Shown one piece after another: positions 2,518 to 61,174 of a stretch of 64,000 nucleotides of DNA. Made by a program: the position numbers and the translations under genes. Below the pieces are notes generated by a model, which saw nothing but the letters and a program-made list of their open reading frames with translations, was not told the DNA's origin and ran no database searches. Position 1 is the first letter of the stretch, and each line of letters opens with the position of its first letter. This stretch comes from Dehalococcoidia bacterium (GTDB lineage Bacteria > Chloroflexota > Dehalococcoidia > UBA2979), in the NCBI GenBank assembly GCA_050250415.1, contig JBFWOO010000003.1, forward strand, positions 67,491 to 131,490, read 5' to 3'.

Positions 2518-3564
2518 TCAGGCGGTGCGGGCGGCGCGCTTGACGGCCGCGCGACGGACGGCGGTGCTGAAGATGTCCAGCGGGGTCTCTGCCGGGACGG
2601 CGGCGTCCAGGTGGCGGAAGGCGGCGGCGGCGATCATCGCGCCGTTGTCCGTACAGAGCACCGGGGGCGGGATGTGCACGGGCACCGGTGACTCCTCGCG
2701 GATGCGCTCGCGGAGGCGGCGGTTCGCGGCGACGCCGCCCGCGACGAGGAGGCTCGCGACGCCCTCGCGCTCGGCGGCGCGCGCCGCCTTCTTCGCCAGC
2801 ACGTCGCAGACTGACTCCTCGAACGCCCAGGCGATCTCGGCCGGCGCCGGCGCGTCCGGGGAGGCGACGAGGTTGGCGACGGCGGTCTTGAGGCCGGAGA
2901 ACGAGAAGTCGTCGCTGCCGCGGAGCCAGGCGCGCGGGAGGCGCGTGCGCCGCGCCTCGGCGGTCGCCGCGAGCCGGGAGATCGGCGGGCCGCCCGGGTA
3001 GGGGAGGTCGAGCAGGCGCGCGACCTTGTCGAAGGCTTCACCGGCGGCGTCGTCGCGGGTGCCGCCGAGGCGCTGGAACTGGCCGTGCTCCTCCATGAGG
3101 AGCAGCTCGCTGTGGCCACCGGAGACGACGAGGGCGAGCGCCGGCAGCTCCGGCTGGACCTCCGCCGTCTGCCCGACCGCGGTCGGGAGCCAGTTCGCGG
3201 CGACGTGGCCTTCGATGTGGTCGACGGGGATCAGCGGCAGGCCGCGGGCGAAGGCGAGGCCGCGCGCCGCGTTGAAGCCGATGAGCAGGGCGCCGGGCAG
3301 GCCGGGGCCGGCGGTGACGGCGATCGCGTCGAGGTCGTCCCACCTGCACTCAGCATCGGCGAGGGCGCGGCGGACGACGGGGACGAGCGCGGCGAGGTGG
3401 GCGCGCGCGGCGACCTCCGGCACGACGCCGCCGGTGGCGGCGTGGAGGTCGCCCTGGCTGGCGACGACGTTGCTTTCGAGGCGGAGCGGGCCGTCCTCGC
3501 CGACGCGGGAGACGACGGCGGCGGCGGTCTCGTCGCAGGAGGTCTCGATGCCGAGGATGCGCAT
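2518..3564 (-). CDS. tsaD: tRNA N6-adenosine threonylcarbamoyltransferase TsaD (Kae1/Gcp family)
   Basis: MRILGIETSCDETAAAVV... N-terminus and overall Kae1/TsaD similarity across the 348-aa ORF. ATG start at 3564-3562. Confidence 0.95.
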   Translation of the reverse strand: MRILGIETSCDETAAAVVSRVGEDGPLRLESNVVASQGDLHAATGGVVPEVAARAHLAALVPVVRRALADAECRWDDLDAIAVTAGPGLPGALLIGFNAARGLAFARGLPLIPVDHIEGHVAANWLPTAVGQTAEVQPELPALALVVSGGHSELLLMEEHGQFQRLGGTRDDAAGEAFDKVARLLDLPYPGGPPISRLAATAEARRTRLPRAWLRGSDDFSFSGLKTAVANLVASPDAPAPAEIAWAFEESVCDVLAKKAARAAEREGVASLLVAGGVAANRRLRERIREESPVPVHIPPPVLCTDNGAMIAAAAFRHLDAAVPAETPLDIFSTAVRRAAVKRAARTA

Positions 3565-3573
3565 ACGGCCAGT

Positions 3574-4137
3574 CTAGCGGTCGCCGGCGTCGGTGGCCGA
3601 TCGCCAGGAGGCGTCCTCGGCGCCGGGGTCCGGGACGAGGCGCTGGGCGGCCGCCATGAACTCCTCGAACAGGTCGGCGAGCAGCAGCTGGCGGTCGGGG
3701 GCGAGCTGAGCGAGGACGGCGGCGAAGTCGGGCTCGCGCTGGGATTCGACCTCGGCGAGGACGGTGGCGCCGGCCTCGGTGAGCGAGAGGCGGGTGACGC
3801 GGCGGTCCTGCGGGTCCGCCTCGCGACGGACGAAGCCGAGCGCGGCCACGCGGTCCACGAGCCCGGTGAGCGAGGAGCCGCCGAGGCCGATCGCCTGCCC
3901 GACTTCGCCCGTGGCGGCGCCGGCGGCGTCACGGACGGCGAAGAGGAGGCGCAGCTGCGGGAGGGTGAGGCCGCGGCGCTCCCAGAGGTCGAGGCGCAGC
4001 GGCTCCACGAGCGCGAGGAAGCGGACAAGCGCGTCCTTCAGGCGGAAGGACGCGTCCGCGAGCTGGGCGTCCGTCGGGTGGGCGTCCGTCGGGTGGGCGT
4101 CGGTCGGGTGGGCGTCCGTGGGGTGGTCGCGGTGCAC
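3574..4137 (-). CDS. MarR-family transcriptional regulator with an N-terminal (HPTDA)x4 peptide repeat
   Basis: Core ...LTLPQLRLLFAVRDAAGATGEVGQAIGLGGSSLTGLVDRVAALGFVRREADPQDRRVTRLSLTEAG... is a typical MarR wHTH. GTG start at 4137 is preceded by GAAGGGAGG about 9 nt upstream, so the repeat tract is probably translated. Confidence 0.8.
   Translation of the reverse strand: MHRDHPTDAHPTDAHPTDAHPTDAQLADASFRLKDALVRFLALVEPLRLDLWERRGLTLPQLRLLFAVRDAAGAATGEVGQAIGLGGSSLTGLVDRVAALGFVRREADPQDRRVTRLSLTEAGATVLAEVESQREPDFAAVLAQLAPDRQLLLADLFEEFMAAAQRLVPDPGAEDASWRSATDAGDR
4065..4124. repeat. 15-nt in-frame tandem repeat x4 (gggcgtccgtcgggt) encoding HPTDA repeats in the MarR N-terminus
   Basis: Four near-identical 15-mers on the + strand; the minus-strand translation is HPTDAHPTDAHPTDAHPTDA. 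Confidence 0.85.
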
Positions 4138-4269
4138 GGCGGGCGGCCTCCCTTCAGCCTCATCCTACGTGGCGCGGGGAGTGTGGCGCGTCCGCGATTG
4201 AGCCTCCGCCCTCGGCCCGTATACTGGCTCGACGGGCCCGCGCTGTGTTGCGTCGGCCTGCCCCAGTCC

Positions 4270-4344
4270 GCCGCTGTAGCTCAGGGGCAGAGCAGCTGTT
4301 TCGTAAACAGCAGGTCGTGGGTTCGAATCCCACCGGCGGCTCCA
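4270..4344 (+). tRNA. tRNA-Thr (anticodon CGT)
   Basis: 75-nt cloverleaf. Acceptor stem GCCGCTG/CGGCGGC with one G-U pair. Anticodon stem GCTGT/ACAGC with loop TTCGTAA (anticodon CGT). T-arm GTGGG-TTCGAAT-CCCAC. 3' CCA is encoded. Confidence 0.9.
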
Positions 4345-4437
4345 CTCCAACCGATCACCACGCGAACCACGTCCTGGCCCGCCGCCGTCCGCACTGGCGC
4401 GATGCACCCGGCGGGCCCCCAGCGATCGAGGCCGACG

Positions 4438-5154
4438 ATGAGCAAGTTCCGCACGCGCATCCGTGACATCGGCCGGGCGCCGGGCGGCATGGGCTTCGCC
4501 GCGATCGCCCGTCAGGAGCGACCGCGCTACGTGATCGTGGTCGCCGAGGCGGCGAACGCCGACGAGGCGAACGCGGCAGCCGAGGCCGGCGCGGACGCCG
4601 TGGTCTTCGCGGGCGCGATGCCGGCGGGTGCGCCAGGACGCCTCCCCGCGGGGGTGCGGCTGGAGGATGCGACGCGCGACGAGGTGCGCGCGGCGCGCGA
4701 GGCGGGCGCGGACTTCTTCCTCTTCGACGATGGGCGCACGCACGCGGCGGCGCTGACCGTGGAGGAGATGGGCGCCGTGCTGCTGCTGGGCGCGGACCAG
4801 GACGAGCAGCGGCTGCGCTCGGTCGCCGCGATCGAGCTGGACGCGGTGCTCGTCGAGGCGGAGGCGGACCTGATCACGGTGCGCGAGCAGATCGAGCTCC
4901 GGCGCGTCGCGGCGCTGACCGGCGCGCCGATCCTGCTGCGCTCACTGGGACGCCCGGACGCGGCGATCCTCGAGGCGTGGCGGGACGCGGGCGCTCCGGC
5001 GGTGCTGGTGCCGGCGGCGGACGTGGCGGCGACGCTGGAGGCGGCGCGCGCGGTGCCCGCGCCGCGGCGGGCGGCCGAGCGCCGTCTGCCGATCCTCGGC
5101 GGTCCTGCCCGCGAGGCGGACGGCCACGATCACGACGACGACGACGACGATTAG
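4438..5154 (+). CDS. Hypothetical protein with a C-terminal poly-Asp/His tail (…ADGHDHDDDDDD)
   Basis: GC3-biased frame after the tRNA. The upstream part of the 689-aa six-frame ORF runs through the tRNA and is rejected. An alternative ATG lies at 4402. Confidence 0.5.
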   Translation: MSKFRTRIRDIGRAPGGMGFAAIARQERPRYVIVVAEAANADEANAAAEAGADAVVFAGAMPAGAPGRLPAGVRLEDATRDEVRAAREAGADFFLFDDGRTHAAALTVEEMGAVLLLGADQDEQRLRSVAAIELDAVLVEAEADLITVREQIELRRVAALTGAPILLRSLGRPDAAILEAWRDAGAPAVLVPAADVAATLEAARAVPAPRRAAERRLPILGGPAREADGHDHDDDDDD

Positions 5155-5253
5155 CCGTCCGCGCCGCTTCTTCCGTGGGGCCGGCGCGTCACACGCGTCT
5201 CCGTAGCCCGAGGCGCAAACACACTCATCATTAACGTACACGTCATAGTTGGT

Positions 5254-5283
5254 TTGACGGCCTCGATTCGCCGTCCATAGGAT
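5254..5283 (+). promoter_or_regulatory. Candidate sigma-A-type promoter for merR (TTGACG-18 bp-TAGGAT), implying a leaderless transcript
   Basis: TTGACG at 5254-5259, an 18-nt spacer, and TAGGAT at 5278-5283. The ATG of the MerR gene is at 5290, so the transcript would be leaderless, which is common in actinobacteria. Confidence 0.3.
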
Positions 5284-5289
5284 CACGGC

Positions 5290-5784
5290 ATGACGACGCC
5301 CGCTTCGGAAGACCAGGCGCAGGCGAAGGCCGCGCGGTACCAGATCGGCGAGGTCGCCGAGCGGACCGGCGTGACGCAGCGCACCCTCCGCTTCTACGAG
5401 GAGAAGGGGTTGCTGCGTCCACCCGAGCGGATGGACGGCGGCTTCCGCCTCTACTCCGACGACGACGTGCAGCGGATCGAGTACATCCGCCGGCTCCAGC
5501 AGTACCTGGGGTTCACGCTCGCCGAGATCAAGGAGATGGTGGAGGCGGAGGATCTGCGTCAGCAGATCATCGCGACGTTCCGCCCGGACCGTGAGCTGCC
5601 CGCGCGGCTGGAGCGGGTGAACCGCATCATCGGCGCGCTGGAGCGGCAGCTCGAGGTGGTGGACCACAAGGTGGAGGCGCTGGCGGAGATGCAGGGGGAC
5701 CTGCGCGGGAAGCTGGATCGTGTGACGACGCGGAAGCACGAGCTGGAGGAGGCGATCGCGGCGGATCAGGCCGAGCGGTCGTAG
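5290..5784 (+). CDS. MerR-family transcriptional regulator
   Basis: YQIGEVAERTGVTQRTLRFYEEKGLL is a MerR HTH signature, followed by a coiled-coil dimerisation region. 164 aa. Confidence 0.85.
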   Translation: MTTPASEDQAQAKAARYQIGEVAERTGVTQRTLRFYEEKGLLRPPERMDGGFRLYSDDDVQRIEYIRRLQQYLGFTLAEIKEMVEAEDLRQQIIATFRPDRELPARLERVNRIIGALERQLEVVDHKVEALAEMQGDLRGKLDRVTTRKHELEEAIAADQAERS

Positions 5785-5847
5785 CCGGAGTCGTCCGTGC
5801 GGAGGCGTGACGCCCTCGGGAGACCGAGGGCGTTGTTGTGTCTGCCG

Positions 5848-6430
5848 GCTGGGGCGGCGTCGATGGTCGTGCGGGGCGCCCTCCCCCGGCCCCCTCGCTG
5901 CGCGGGAGGGGGAGAAGGGAGAGGGTGAAACCCCTCCCCCGACGCCCTCCCCTTGCCGGGGGACGGGGCTTCGGACTCGTCGGTGCGAGGGCGGCGTCGA
6001 TGGTCGTGCGGGGCGTCCTCCCCCGACGCCCTCCCCTTGCCGGGGGACGGGGCTTCGGACTCGTCGGTGCGAGGGCGGCGTCGGTGCGAGGGCGGCGTCG
6101 ATGCTGGTGCGGGGCGAGTCCCCCTGCCCCCTCGCTGCGCGGGAGGGGAGAAGGGAGAGGGTGAAACCCCTCCCCCACCCCCCTCCCCTTTCCGGGGGAG
6201 GGGGCTTCGGATCTCGTCGGTGCGAGGGCGGCGTCGATGCCGGTGCGGGGCGCCCTCCCCCCGGCCCCCTCGCTGCGCGGGAGGGGGAGAAGGGAGAGGG
6301 TGAAACCCCTCCCCCGACGCCCTCCCCTTGCCGGGGGACGGGGCTTCGGATCGGTCGGTGCCAGGGCGGGTGTTGCCCCTCCCCCTGGGAGGGGGAGGGT
6401 GGGGAGACGGCGTCTCCTCCGACGAGCTTT
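5848..6430. repeat. Array of about 135-bp GC-rich palindromic repeat units (3 full copies, 1 truncated 83-bp copy, degenerate ends)
   Basis: Repeated unit GGCGGCGTCGATGGTCGTGCGGGGCGCCCTCCCCCGGCCCCCTCGCTGCGCGGGAGGGGGAGAAGGGAGAGGGTGAAACCCCTCCCCCGACGCCCTCCCCTTGCCGGGGGACGGGGCTTCGGACTCGTCGGTGCGAG. Copies at about 5848-5990, 5991-6073 (lacks the GGGAGGGGGAG...CCCCTCCCC module), 6091-6226 and 6227-6364, then a degenerate tail to about 6430. Each unit carries two G/C-run inverted-repeat hairpins. Confidence 0.85.
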
Positions 6431-6433
6431 GAG

Positions 6434-8731
6434 CTATCGCGCCTGGCGGGCGGCCCAGAGCTTGAGGAGGGCGGGCTGGACGAAGGTGGCGGCGATGAGG
6501 GCGTATGCGATCGAGAGGGCGGTGATGGTGCCGAACTGCTGGATCGGGGCGAGCGAGGAGAAGGCCAGCGTGCCGAAGCCGGCAACGGTGGTGGCGGCGG
6601 AGCCGAGGAGGGCGCCGCCGGTGTGGGTGACCACCTCGCTGAGCGCAGCGTCCGGGTCAGAGCGGCCGTCCCACTCGTGGCGGAAGCGGTGGGTGATGTG
6701 GATGCCGTAGGGGACGCCGATGCCGATCGCGAGCGAGGCGACCATCGCGGTGAGGACGTTGAACGACAGGCCGAGCGCCCACATCGATCCGATGATCCAC
6801 GCCGTGACCAGCGTCGAGGGCGTCATGGTGATCAGGCCGAGCAGCGGCTGCCGCCCGACGTACCAGTAGTAGCCGACGAGCAGGATGGCGGAGGCGACGA
6901 GGGTGATGATGATGCCCCGCACCTGTGAGGCCTGGAGCGCGTCCAGGATCTCGTCGATGACGATGACCTGGGAGGTGGCGATCGCCTCGGCGCCGGTCTC
7001 GTCGATCGCGTCGGCGAGCGGGCGGAAGGTGTCGTCGATCGCGTCGGCGCCGTCCTGGCCGGCGGTGGTGGCGGCGGCGATGAGGGCGAGGTCATCCGCG
7101 AGGACGCCGGCCATCGCGGCGGGGTCGGCGTCGCGGGCGGCGTCGTACAGCGCATCGAGGTCGGCGCCCGGGGCGAAGCGCGCGCCGTCCCAACCGTAGC
7201 CGGTGGCCTCGTCGCCGAGGGCCGCGACGGCCACGCTCGGGGGCGAACTGACGTCTGGTTCACCGTCCTGGCCGGTGCGCACGAGCGGGGATGCGCCCAG
7301 GGCGTCCTCCGCGGCGAGCATGGCGTTCGCGACGGCGGGGTCGGAGGCGTCGCCGCGGACGGCGATGTAGGAGCGCTCGCCGAGGTCGCCGCCGAAGTAG
7401 TCCTCCAGCGCCGTGATCGCGCGGTCGGCGAGTGATCCCTCCGGGATGAACTCGTCCTGGCTGAACGTGGTCTCGACCTGCGTGGCCGCGCCGACGGCGA
7501 GCGCGGTCACGATCCCGGCGACGGCGATCACCGCGAGCGGGAAGTGCTTCGAGACGGCGGCGGCGCGCTGCATCAGCCGGGAGAGGCCGACGACGTCGCC
7601 GTCGCCGAGGAGCTGCTCGTCCTCGTCGGGGTGCTCGGCGGTGGCGGGGTCCTCCTTGCGGCGGTCCAGGACGTGGCGCGCGGAGGGGATGAGCACGAGG
7701 AAGACGATGAAGGCGGAGATGACGCCGGCGGCGGTGAAAATGCCGAAGTCAGTGATCGGCGGGAGCGGCGAGGAGATGTTGGTGAGGAAGCCCACGACGG
7801 TGGTGGCGGTGGCGAGCACGAGCGCGCCGCCGACGGTCATGACGGCCGTCGAGGCCGCGCCGCGCGCGGAGGCGCCGCGCCGCTGCTGCTCGCGGTACCG
7901 CCCCGTGAGGTGGATCGCGTAGTCGATGCCGAGGCCGACGAGGAGCACCGGGACGATCGTCGAGATCTGCGAGAGCGGGCCAGTGATGCCGAGGTAGCTC
8001 GGTCCGAGGAGGGCGGCGAGGCCGTAGGTCCAGAGGATCGTGACGATGAGCCCGACGAAACCGAGGACGAGGTCCGTCACGGAGCGGTAGGTGTAGGCGA
8101 GGATCGCGAGCACGAGCAGCAGCGAGATGCCGAGCAGCCGCGGCAGGTCCTCGTTCATGCCCTCCTCGAGCGAGGCGTTGAGGATGCCCTGGCTGAACGG
8201 GATTAGCTCGATGCCGGCGGGCGCGTCGAGCGCCTCCACCGCCGCGCGGATGCCGACGGCGACGTCCTGCGCGTCGAGCGGGGCGAGGGCGGGGTCGAGC
8301 GGGGCGACGACGAGGCCGGCGGTCGCGGTCTCCGCGGTGGCGTCGTAGTCCTGGGAGAGCAGGGCGCCGCCGGTGTCGCGGTCTGCGAAGGAGCTGACGT
8401 CGCCGGCGAGGTGCTCGCCCGCGGCGGTGCGGACGGCCGCGGCGACCTGCTCGGCGAAGGCGATGCCCTCGGCGTCCAGGATGTTGCCATCGCTGTCCGG
8501 CGTCGCCTCGAGGATGACCTGGACGACCTCGCTCTGCCCGCCAAACGCCTCCGCAATGTCATCCAGGGCGACAGCACGCTCGGTCGAGGGGGAGAACGAG
8601 GTGAGGTCGGTCTCGGAGGAGAGGCTCCCGGAGAGGCCGGCGAAGACGACGGTGACGAGGAGCAGCCCGATGAGCGCGAGGCCGGGGCGGCGCGCGACGA
8701 GGGTCGCGAGGATGTCGAGGACGTGGTTCAC
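6434..8731 (-). CDS. MMPL-family (RND superfamily) membrane exporter
   Basis: 765 aa with two blocks of transmembrane helices separated by large periplasmic domains. Typical MMPL motifs (…GIDYAIHL…, …LGVPYGIHITHRFRHE…). GTG start preceded by GAGGTAG. Confidence 0.85.
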   Translation of the reverse strand: MNHVLDILATLVARRPGLALIGLLLVTVVFAGLSGSLSSETDLTSFSPSTERAVALDDIAEAFGGQSEVVQVILEATPDSDGNILDAEGIAFAEQVAAAVRTAAGEHLAGDVSSFADRDTGGALLSQDYDATAETATAGLVVAPLDPALAPLDAQDVAVGIRAAVEALDAPAGIELIPFSQGILNASLEEGMNEDLPRLLGISLLLVLAILAYTYRSVTDLVLGFVGLIVTILWTYGLAALLGPSYLGITGPLSQISTIVPVLLVGLGIDYAIHLTGRYREQQRRGASARGAASTAVMTVGGALVLATATTVVGFLTNISSPLPPITDFGIFTAAGVISAFIVFLVLIPSARHVLDRRKEDPATAEHPDEDEQLLGDGDVVGLSRLMQRAAAVSKHFPLAVIAVAGIVTALAVGAATQVETTFSQDEFIPEGSLADRAITALEDYFGGDLGERSYIAVRGDASDPAVANAMLAAEDALGASPLVRTGQDGEPDVSSPPSVAVAALGDEATGYGWDGARFAPGADLDALYDAARDADPAAMAGVLADDLALIAAATTAGQDGADAIDDTFRPLADAIDETGAEAIATSQVIVIDEILDALQASQVRGIIITLVASAILLVGYYWYVGRQPLLGLITMTPSTLVTAWIIGSMWALGLSFNVLTAMVASLAIGIGVPYGIHITHRFRHEWDGRSDPDAALSEVVTHTGGALLGSAATTVAGFGTLAFSSLAPIQQFGTITALSIAYALIAATFVQPALLKLWAARQAR

Positions 8732-36449: not shown

Positions 36450-37949
36450 ATGCCGGTTGCCGTCGCCCCGCGTCCCCTCGCCCGTCCCTGGCCGCTGACC
36501 GTGGAGCCGTGGGAGGGCGCCTCCCCCGCCGACGCCGTCGCCGCGCTGCGCGGTCGTCCGGGGCTTGCCTGGCTCGATTCTGCGCTGCCGGGCGAGCGCC
36601 TGGGACGCTGGTCGATCGTCGCTTCGGACCCACGCTGGACGTTGACCGCCTACGGCTCCGATGTGCTCTACGACGGCGCGTGTGGTCCGCGCCGGCTGCG
36701 CCCGGGCGCCCTGCGCGCGTTCGCGCGCGCAGTGGAGGCGGAGCCGGCGCCAGAGGCCGCCGGCGACCTCGCGCTCCCGTTGATCGGAGACCTGCCGTTC
36801 GTCGGTGGCGCGATCGGGTACCTCGGGTTCGAGCTGGGGCGCGAGGTCGAGCGGCTGCCGGCAACGACGCTCGACGACGTCGGCGCGCCGGACCTCGCCG
36901 TCGGCTGGTACGACGCCGCGCTCGTGTGGGACGAGGTGGCGCGGCGGGGGTGGCTCGTCGGCCGCGCGGAGGCGGTCGCCCCGCTGCGCTCGCGGCTCGA
37001 AGCGCCCGCGATGGCGCCGGGGCCGGTCACGGCGGGGGCCCTCCGTCCGAACATGACGCGCGAGGCGTACCTCGCGGCGGTGGAGCGCGCCCTGGCCTAC
37101 GTCCGCGCGGGCGACATCTACCAGGTCAACTTCGCGCAGCGGCTCTCCGCGCCCCTCGCAGGCGACGGGATCGACGCCTACCTCCGGCTCCGCGCGAGCA
37201 GTCCCGCGCCGTTCGCCGCCTATCTCGACACGCGCGGCGCGTCGGGGGGCGTCGAGGTGTTGTCGTCGTCACCGGAGCGGTTCCTGCTGCTCGACCGCGA
37301 CGTCCTTGAGACCCGCCCGATCAAGGGGACGCGGCCCCGCGGCGCCACGCCGGAGGCGGACGCGGCGCTGGCGGCCGAGCTGCGCGCGAGCAGCAAGGAC
37401 CTCGCCGAGCACGTGATGATCGTGGACCTGGAACGGAACGACCTCGGGCGGGTCGCCGTCGTGGGGAGCGTGCAGGTCCCCGAGTTCGCGACGCTGGAGT
37501 CGTTCCGACAGGTGCACCACCTGACGTCGACGGTCCGCGCGACGCGCCGGCCCGGCGCGGGCCTGGAGGCGATCCTGCGCGCGACGTTCCCCGGCGGATC
37601 GATCACCGGCGCGCCGAAGGTGCGGGCGCTGGAGATCATCGATGAGCTCGAGCCGACGGTCCGCGGCGCCTACACGGGGTCGATCGGATACGTGTCGGCG
37701 CACGGGCGGATGGACTTCAACATCGCCATCCGCACGATCACCCTCGCGGATGGGGTCGCGCATCTACACGTCGGCGGCGCGATCGTGCACGACTCCGACC
37801 CCGCCCTGGAGTACGCGGAGACGATGCACAAGGCGCGCGGCATGGCTCGGGCGCTGGGTGTGACCCTGCCAGACGAGATGCCAGACGAGATGCTAGACGA
37901 GACGCCAGACGAGACGCCAGACGAGATGCAGGACGAGACAGGCGCGTGA
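36450..37949 (+). CDS. pabB: Aminodeoxychorismate synthase component I (chorismate-binding enzyme), with a C-terminal (M/L)PDE(M/T) repeat tail
   Basis: …FPGGSITGAPKVRALEIIDELEPTVRGAYTGSIGYVS… is the chorismate-binding family. It is followed by an overlapping class IV aminotransferase, which favours PabB over TrpE. Confidence 0.8.
   Translation: MPVAVAPRPLARPWPLTVEPWEGASPADAVAALRGRPGLAWLDSALPGERLGRWSIVASDPRWTLTAYGSDVLYDGACGPRRLRPGALRAFARAVEAEPAPEAAGDLALPLIGDLPFVGGAIGYLGFELGREVERLPATTLDDVGAPDLAVGWYDAALVWDEVARRGWLVGRAEAVAPLRSRLEAPAMAPGPVTAGALRPNMTREAYLAAVERALAYVRAGDIYQVNFAQRLSAPLAGDGIDAYLRLRASSPAPFAAYLDTRGASGGVEVLSSSPERFLLLDRDVLETRPIKGTRPRGATPEADAALAAELRASSKDLAEHVMIVDLERNDLGRVAVVGSVQVPEFATLESFRQVHHLTSTVRATRRPGAGLEAILRATFPGGSITGAPKVRALEIIDELEPTVRGAYTGSIGYVSAHGRMDFNIAIRTITLADGVAHLHVGGAIVHDSDPALEYAETMHKARGMARALGVTLPDEMPDEMLDETPDETPDEMQDETGA
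37869..37940. repeat. 12-nt in-frame tandem repeat x6 (ccagacgagatg variants) encoding a PDEM/PDET peptide repeat
   Basis: ccagacgagatg ccagacgagatg ctagacgagacg ccagacgagacg ccagacgagatg caggacgagaca lies at the 3' end of pabB. Confidence 0.85.
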
Positions 37950-60906: not shown

Positions 60907-61174
60907 CTCGGGGCGCCCTGCCCGCATGAGGCGAGACCGGCGTCGCTCGGGCGCTCGCCGGGCTCACCGTCGACGGGCTCTTCGACAGGCTCCCGCCGCT
61001 GGCAGGCTGCCCCGCGTGACAGGCTCAGCGTGAGCGCGGTGGTGCCCTTCCCGGGCTCCCTGCTCCCGTCCTGGGGGAGGAGGGAGCGTCACGATCGCCA
61101 GGGCGTCGCCCCCCGTGTATCGCAGGGCGTCGCCCCCCGTGTCGAGCCTCGCTCCTGGACCCGCTCCTGGTGGT

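Follow-up and report, generated by a model that had tools for sequence, protein, structure and literature searches.

BoxC or PIT elements reportedly go back to work by Bergler in 1992 and by Hoyne and Maher in 2000. To our knowledge, BoxC, PIT and triplex motifs have been described for some 30 years with no function assigned to them, and only one finding has been consistent, namely that the loci carrying them are unstable. In E. coli, BoxC is 56 bp long and present in 32 copies. The same structural class has been described as TMECO (Holder et al. 2015, PMC4666352) and, independently, as HPGQ, a G-quadruplex-hairpin-duplex switch (Kaplan et al. 2016, PMC5100583). An intrastrand triplex motif is defined as a pyrimidine stem followed by the complementary purine stem and then by a mirror purine stem (PMC4666352). 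Inverted TMECO pairs occur at 5 of 18 E. coli K-12 sites, palindromic pairs in E. coli are prone to lose a part and leave simple stem-loops behind, and 39% of strain comparisons at E. coli TMECO regions show intergenic changes, compared with <1% of control regions (PMC4666352). According to the same source, PIT elements had neither promoter nor terminator activity when tested in E. coli, and stable triplex was not detected in vivo in this species (PMC4666352). HPG1 in E. coli lies between convergent genes at six sites and between divergent genes at one (PMC5100583).

Here we describe an array with the same block grammar (a C-stem, a short loop, the complementary G-stem, a second short loop and a mirror G-stem of 8-10 nt) in an uncultured member of the Dehalococcoidia (Chloroflexota), a group absent from the main text of the published survey. 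As is typical of BoxC/PIT/TMECO/HPGQ elements, the array is intergenic only, is built from inverted pairs, doubles as canonical G4 motifs and occupies a locus that is unstable between close relatives, with no known association with a gene class and no known regulatory role. It differs from BoxC and TMECO in its stems, which read GGGGAGGG(G) instead of GGGAGAGGG/GGGTGAGGG. Its inverted pair is embedded in a 137-bp unit present in four amplified head-to-tail copies, and no dispersed copy occurs within the 64-kb window (the whole stretch of DNA analysed), whereas 23 TMECO copies are scattered over the E. coli K-12 chromosome. Because the strict TMECO pattern CCCTCNCCC-N3-6-GGGNGAGGG-N3-GGGNGAGGG had 0 matches on either strand of the 64-kb window, we class the array, by its sequence, as a sister family within the structural class and not as BoxC itself.

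Two further systems invite comparison. The BIME-2 clusters of E. coli REP sequences are likewise arrays of alternating GC-rich palindromes with short linkers and variable copy number, lying 3' of genes and in many cases in convergent gaps. However, REPs form families of hundreds of copies that are linked to RAYT transposases, carry GTAG/CGTC heads and have stems of mixed composition, whereas the stems described here are homopurine/homopyrimidine and have no dispersed copies within 64 kb. Minisatellites or VNTRs such as the mycobacterial MIRUs resemble the array in having intergenic head-to-tail units of 40-150 bp that are altered by slippage (here by a 53-bp deletion and a 17-bp duplication) and are present or absent between close lineages, but MIRUs are dispersed, are often located inside operons and do not consist of triplex/G4 motifs. 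We propose that the array is probably a lineage-specific tandem amplification (minisatellite/VNTR) of a composite unit of about 137 bp containing an inverted pair of intrastrand triplex motifs, generated by slippage and probably lacking a dedicated function. The features of the locus are as follows.

5290-5784, plus strand: merR-family regulator gene (164 aa; stop TAG at 5782-5784; Pfam MerR_1 1.4e-25, MerR 7.7e-17)
5810-5841, plus strand: terminator-like hairpin of merR, ACGCCCTCGG-gaga-CCGAGGGCGT, then the T-rich tail TGTTGTGT
5852-5988: unit 1, 137 bp, full; linker, inverted pair of triplex motifs, linker
5989-6072: unit 2, 84 bp, lacking 53 bp
6073-6089: extra micro-duplication of the unit junction, 17 bp, GGGCGGCGTCGGTGCGA (TRF 6062-6104, period 17, 2.5 copies, 96% matches)
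6090-6225: unit 3, 136 bp, full; the most diverged copy
6226-6364: unit 4, 139 bp, full
6377-6419: terminal degenerate triplex-type hairpin, CCCTCCCCC-tggga-GGGGGAGGG-T-GGGGAG at 6377-6406, overlapping a second hairpin at 6401-6419
6434-8731, minus strand: MMPL/RND-family transporter gene (765 aa; Pfam MMPL 3.4e-40), its 3' end facing the array

The window has a G+C content of 71.5%. The MMPL protein is 100% identical to the database entry 'MAG: RND family transporter [Dehalococcoidia bacterium]' (P0001), encoded on a 313-kb contig. The original prediction had placed the array beside a divergent MMPL gene; in fact merR (plus strand) and MMPL (minus strand) are convergent, tail to tail, and the array lies 3' of both. 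That it nearly fills the gap was right, with array and terminal hairpins occupying 5848-6419 of the 649 bp between the two genes (5785-6433). Of the 11 convergent gaps that a crude, GC3-based gene calling gives for the 64-kb window, none is larger; the others measure -4 to 268 bp. The region that holds the merR hairpin (5785-5851) folds with z = -4.2, and 0 of 200 shuffles fold equally well; a strict terminator scan misses the hairpin at 5810-5841 because its tail has fewer than five T per eight bases.

Further upstream, the sole sigma-70-like match between 5200 and 7000 (TTGACG-18 nt-TAGGAT, 5254-5283) ends 7 bp 5' of the merR start codon. An ORF at 3085-5154 (plus strand, 689 aa) has no Pfam match, and neither has the gene upstream of merR in a related genome (L001, GCA_009612915.1). 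Since that counterpart is only 239 aa long, the ORF is probably over-extended, with the real gene at about 4435-5154, and this gene is possibly co-transcribed with merR.

The array consists of four head-to-tail units starting at 5852, 5989, 6090 and 6226, a copy number that rests on one MAG assembly. Every unit opens with an invariant 27-mer, GGGCGGCGTCGATG...GTGCGGGGCG, which has four matches against 0 expected, and TRF describes the array with a period of 139, 90% matches and a score of 469. The full copies are mutually 89-94% identical; units 1 and 4 are 94% identical and share the longest exact repeat, of 93 bp. The two hairpins quoted in the original prediction recur as described there, the first three times and the second four times (chance expectation 0 for both). 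The predicted arrangement of four consecutive copies, three of them full, also holds, with the amendment that the short copy measures 84 bp and lacks exactly 53 bp. In unit 1, the 10-bp direct repeat CCCTCCCCCG occurs at 5879 and 5932, a spacing identical to the 53 bp missing from unit 2, and this loss reads as the signature of a slippage deletion. Unit 2 thereby resembles the part-loss products of palindromic TMECO pairs in E. coli. Past unit 4, a unit-like beginning (GGCGGGTGTTG...) leads to a degenerate G/C hairpin at 6377-6399 and then to a second hairpin at 6401-6419; both lie just 3' of the MMPL stop codon, and the minus strand of this terminal element folds with z = -2.7. These two hairpins and the 17-bp duplication at 6073-6089 add to what had been noticed before.

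On the plus strand, each full unit is ordered as C-stem, C-stem, G-stem, G-stem, TGAAA, C-stem, C-stem, G-stem. Every block is a form of the single word GGGGAGGG(G), either its complement or its mirror image, and a linker of about 48 nt flanks each core. Base pairing of the outer C-arm (5876-5890) with the G-arm (5955-5969) makes the units long imperfect palindromes, and pairing between the unit ends depends on G-U/G-T pairs. With one unit repeated head-to-tail and a copy number that differs between related genomes, the array has the properties of a tandem minisatellite or VNTR. It is not a CRISPR array, as had already been recognised: the whole 137-bp period is repeated and nothing unique lies between the units.

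To locate triplex motifs, we reimplemented the published Holder 2015 criteria as an ITxF-like scan (stems ≥8 nt, ≤1 mismatch, loops of 1-6 nt). Across the 64 kb, it returned matches only in the three full units, and it returned none in 30 Markov-1 simulated windows. Canonical G4 motifs were identified with a regular expression (G3+N1-7 x4). The predicted motifs are listed below.

5917-5966 (unit 1), 6153-6204 (unit 3) and 6292-6341 (unit 4), minus strand: overlapping class I and class II intrastrand triplex motifs, ordered C-stem, G-stem, mirror G-stem, C-stem
within 6153-6204, minus strand: perfect 10-nt triplex motif of unit 3, CCCCCTCCCC-cggaaa-GGGGAGGGGG-gt-GGGGGAGGGG
5904-5925 (plus strand) and 5931-5952 (minus strand): G4 motifs, unit 1
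6141-6161 (plus strand) and 6167-6188 (minus strand): G4 motifs, unit 3
6279-6300 (plus strand) and 6306-6327 (minus strand): G4 motifs, unit 4
6387-6404 (plus strand): G4 motif, terminal element

In block order and intergenic location, the three full units agree with the published definition of intrastrand triplex motifs. Unit 2 and the terminal element fail the scan at stems ≥8 nt, and the plus-strand half of each inverted pair has a first loop of 17 nt, beyond the published 1-6 nt. The merR/MMPL gap, which makes up 1% of the window, holds 7 of its 13 G4 motifs, four on the plus and three on the minus strand, all within 5904-6404; a real G-quadruplex/i-motif potential, as originally suggested, is thus predicted for the array. 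The word GGGGAGGGG is a near-mirror of itself, so that any cluster of such hairpins automatically scores as a 'triplex motif', and the biological information content of the triplex label may be low.

Very stable hairpins are predicted on both strands of the array. Folding of the unit, as proposed in the original prediction, gave strong structures (-77 to -86 kcal/mol for the RNA), but these are no better than those of composition-matched dinucleotide shuffles (z of -0.9 to -1.6, not significant); with DNA parameters, the unit cores reach z of -1.2 to -2.0, likewise not significantly better than shuffles. Fold stability therefore largely reflects composition. A scan of 5000-7500 against the structured RNAs of Rfam 15 (E ≤ 1) yielded at best 32 bits against a gathering score of 70, mostly with eukaryotic miRNA models that are composition artefacts. 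A promoter and terminator consensus scan returned nothing inside the array.

Comparison with relatives places three states at one site. In L001, whose MMPL is 82% identical, and in a second genome (L003, 81% identical), the convergent merR/MMPL arrangement is kept, and the genes are separated by 144 and 71 bp, respectively, of unrelated sequence without a triplex motif; blastn-short of the relatives' spacers against the array found only G-run/C-run words of ≤15 nt. In the closest relative (L004, GCA_020432235.1; MMPL 86% identical, with a conserved C-terminus), the MMPL stop codon is immediately followed by one strict triplex motif, CCCTCCCCC-ggatca-GGGGGAGGG-ctg-GGGAGAGGG, and then by a C-stem, in the orientation and position of the terminal element of the window. 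The L004 contig ends 161 bp past this stop, ahead of any merR sequence. The end stretch (2479-2639) has ccttcgacaggctcagggtgagcgg, resembling another interspersed repeat, and a repeat may have broken the assembly of L004 at the same locus. Around the more distant MMPL relatives P0005 and P0006 the neighbouring genes are different, so that these two are uninformative on the ancestral spacer. As read from these sequences, the states of sister lineages at the same site run in order from no motif through one motif to an amplified array. The expectation that copy number varies is supported between lineages, with spacers of 71-144 bp in the relatives compared with 649 bp here.

Amplification in place, as we propose it, builds on how the units are constructed, on their agreement with the published motif definition, on the confinement of the unit to this locus within the sequence searched, on its absence in relatives and on the slippage signatures. 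It would have begun from a single triplex motif just 3' of MMPL, as still found in L004, with the terminal element at 6377-6419 probably being the ancestral element. This element would have been elaborated into an inverted pair, and slipped-strand mispairing or unequal recombination would then have multiplied it head-to-tail; hairpin, triplex or G4 formation by single strands may have helped. The 53-bp deletion and the 17-bp duplication would be later products of the same process, with indels presumably ongoing. The array could persist because it lies in a gap between two gene 3' ends, where there is no promoter to disrupt, and it may have incidental effects, such as stable 3'-end hairpins on read-through transcripts and a structure-prone obstacle to polymerase between convergent genes. 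Amplification in place fits what is known of the class, because instability is the one robust property reported for TMECO. The locus is a clean natural example of triplex-motif instability and adds Chloroflexota to the known range of the class. Arrays of this kind disrupt short-read assemblies; in high-GC genomes they produce spurious ORFs, and they could be used to mark strains. A new mechanism is not revealed; the array is an ordinary type of bacterial non-coding repeat that has been tandemly amplified.

Related elements are widespread in metagenomes. With a pattern derived from the terminal hairpin and common to L004 (CCCTCCCCC-N3-7-GGGGGAGGG-N1-2-GGGGAG), we found at least 120 JGI metagenome loci (L006-L125), on contigs of 45-74% G+C. 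Among the matches listed, 114 of 120 passed the strict triplex scan, with 207 sites in 715 kb; their consensus is a near-identical element, ctCCCTCCCCC-cttgt-GGGGGAGGG-tT-GGGGAGGGGG, often with a matching CCCCCTCCC arm about 30 nt downstream. The element is absent from Rfam. Subsets of these loci have longer conserved flanks, for example ...actcggtctgct ahead of it, a sign that dispersed repeat families may exist in several phyla. The inverted-pair layout of the window units (C-G-G, spacer, C-C-G) recurs in three unrelated loci (L020, L078 and L104), an architecture that matches the 'inverted TMECO pairs' of E. coli K-12. Two unrelated contigs carry tandem clusters of 3-5 triplex-type G/C hairpins directly after stop codons (L119, 395-591; L022, 6477-6680), so local amplification of such elements at gene 3' ends seems to recur. 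As for intergenic context, 13 of the classifiable matches among those listed are convergent, 3 divergent and 23 tandem, the last without strand bias, by crude gene calls; the convergent excess is similar to the E. coli count of Kaplan et al. (6 versus 1).

This dispersal elsewhere raises the possibility that the 137-bp unit is itself a member of a mobile REP/BIME/REPIN- or MITE-like family and the array an insertion cluster comparable to BIME-2 in E. coli. The long imperfect palindromes, the location at gene 3' ends, which is typical of REP/BIME, and the clearly dispersed triplex-type elements with conserved flanks (the 207 strict sites among the matches listed) all point in this direction. 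We nevertheless consider it unlikely, since no other copy of any module is present in the 64-kb window; REP, BIME or REPIN families comprise tens to hundreds of dispersed copies. When genomes were scanned exactly, one for each GTDB species, hairpin 2 plus CTTCGG had 0 matches, and the hairpin-1 22-mer had 0 matches in JGI metagenomes. Translations of both array strands found no homologue or spurious-ORF relative among 5.8 billion proteins. An nhmmer search of 765 kb of fetched loci with a unit profile gave weak matches (E of 2e-4 or worse) to the G/C modules only, never to the linkers. The scans of the genome and metagenome collections relied on exact words or patterns, which diverged copies could escape. 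A scan of GTDB species genomes guided by the MMPL protein had as its sole match a 40%-identical Nitriliruptoria locus, and the literature offered nothing useful on the pseudo-peptide 'GEGWGEG' or the word GGGGAGGG. Moreover, the units abut head-to-tail without the target-site duplications or duplicated flanks that accompany the terminal inverted repeats of MITEs, and the array fades out after its last unit in a degenerate copy, which is what duplication in place would produce. There is thus no evidence, in the 64-kb window and the collections searched, that the 137-bp unit is a dispersed family. The original suggestion of a REP/MITE-like family stands in so far as the G/C modules belong to the known BoxC/PIT/triplex class (PMC4666352, PMC5100583), and finds no support for the unit as a whole, which was found nowhere else in the window and the collections searched.

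Alternatively, the array could be a selected element, acting as a bidirectional terminator or insulator or as an mRNA 3'-end stabiliser for merR and MMPL through repeated RNA hairpins or template G4/triplex structures, with copy number as a possible means of tuning. Its position exactly between two gene 3' ends and the very stable hairpins predicted on both strands are consistent with such a role, as are the convergent excesses among the listed metagenome matches and for HPG1 in E. coli (PMC5100583). This convergent bias is explained equally well by selection against insertion in promoters, however, and the array hairpins lack U-tracts. A dedicated function is unlikely, as an argument from absence, because PIT elements were inactive in the E. 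coli tests of PMC4666352 (PIT/BoxC showing no terminator activity there), because merR and MMPL are each provided with a terminal hairpin that lies outside the array (5810-5841 and 6377-6419) and because the relatives lack the array and manage with unrelated spacers of 71-144 bp. We therefore hold a selected element to be just as improbable as a mobile family.

More speculatively, the array might act as a copy-number-variable 'non-B DNA' device, in which tandem triplex/G4-hairpin switches form a tunable roadblock to transcription or replication or a recombination hotspot. We regard this as very unlikely; if it were true, merR/MMPL expression would be a contingency locus in uncultured high-GC Dehalococcoidia, and the BoxC/PIT/triplex-motif class would gain a testable function.

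It is also very unlikely that the array, or its copy number, is a metagenome assembly artefact produced by repeat expansion or by concatenation of strain variants. The array is known from a single MAG contig (P0001: one member, one contig), and the break in the L004 contig 161 bp past the MMPL stop suggests assembler trouble at this site. However, the copies differ by specific substitutions and indels and are not identical traversals of a loop, the longest exact repeat of 93 bp is resolvable by 150-bp reads or large k-mers, and the flanks are collinear with those of relatives.

The remaining readings put forward originally or suggested by the strong predicted folding and the long ORFs in several frames can be set aside as scarcely credible: a structured small RNA, since Rfam gave only sub-threshold, miRNA-like matches, there is no promoter-like site in the array, the unit fold z is not significant and the sequence is not conserved in relatives; a MerR operator array or an expanded region for regulator binding at merR and MMPL, since the array is downstream of both genes and far from either promoter; and a low-complexity coding region, since unit lengths of 137, 136 and 139 bp are not multiples of 3 and shift the frame and the translations have no homologues, which leaves the ORFs as artefacts of the repeats, as had been proposed.

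Four other tandem repeats were observed in the window. At 1040-1128, a 13-bp unit, GGCAGGGTGTGAT, is repeated about seven times (TRF score 108) within a 468-bp divergent gap at 677-1144, as delimited by crude gene calls; the repeat is probably non-coding, because its period is not a multiple of 3, and is possibly a binding-site array in a promoter region. A 15-bp unit, GCGTCCGTCGGGTGG, occurs five times at 4052-4126 with 90% matches, near the start of an ORF at 3574-4137 (minus strand) and also inside the ORF at 3085-5154 (plus strand); the former ORF occupies the position of the MarR gene of L001. At 37867-37938, six copies of a 12-bp unit, TGCCAGACGAGA, with 90% matches lie at the very end of an ORF at 36450-37949 (plus strand) and either encode a 4-residue repeat at the C-terminus or are intergenic. 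The second-largest convergent gap, at 60907-61174, contains two copies of a 24-bp unit, ATCGCCAGGGCGTCGCCCCCCGTGT, at 61094-61142, with 96% matches.
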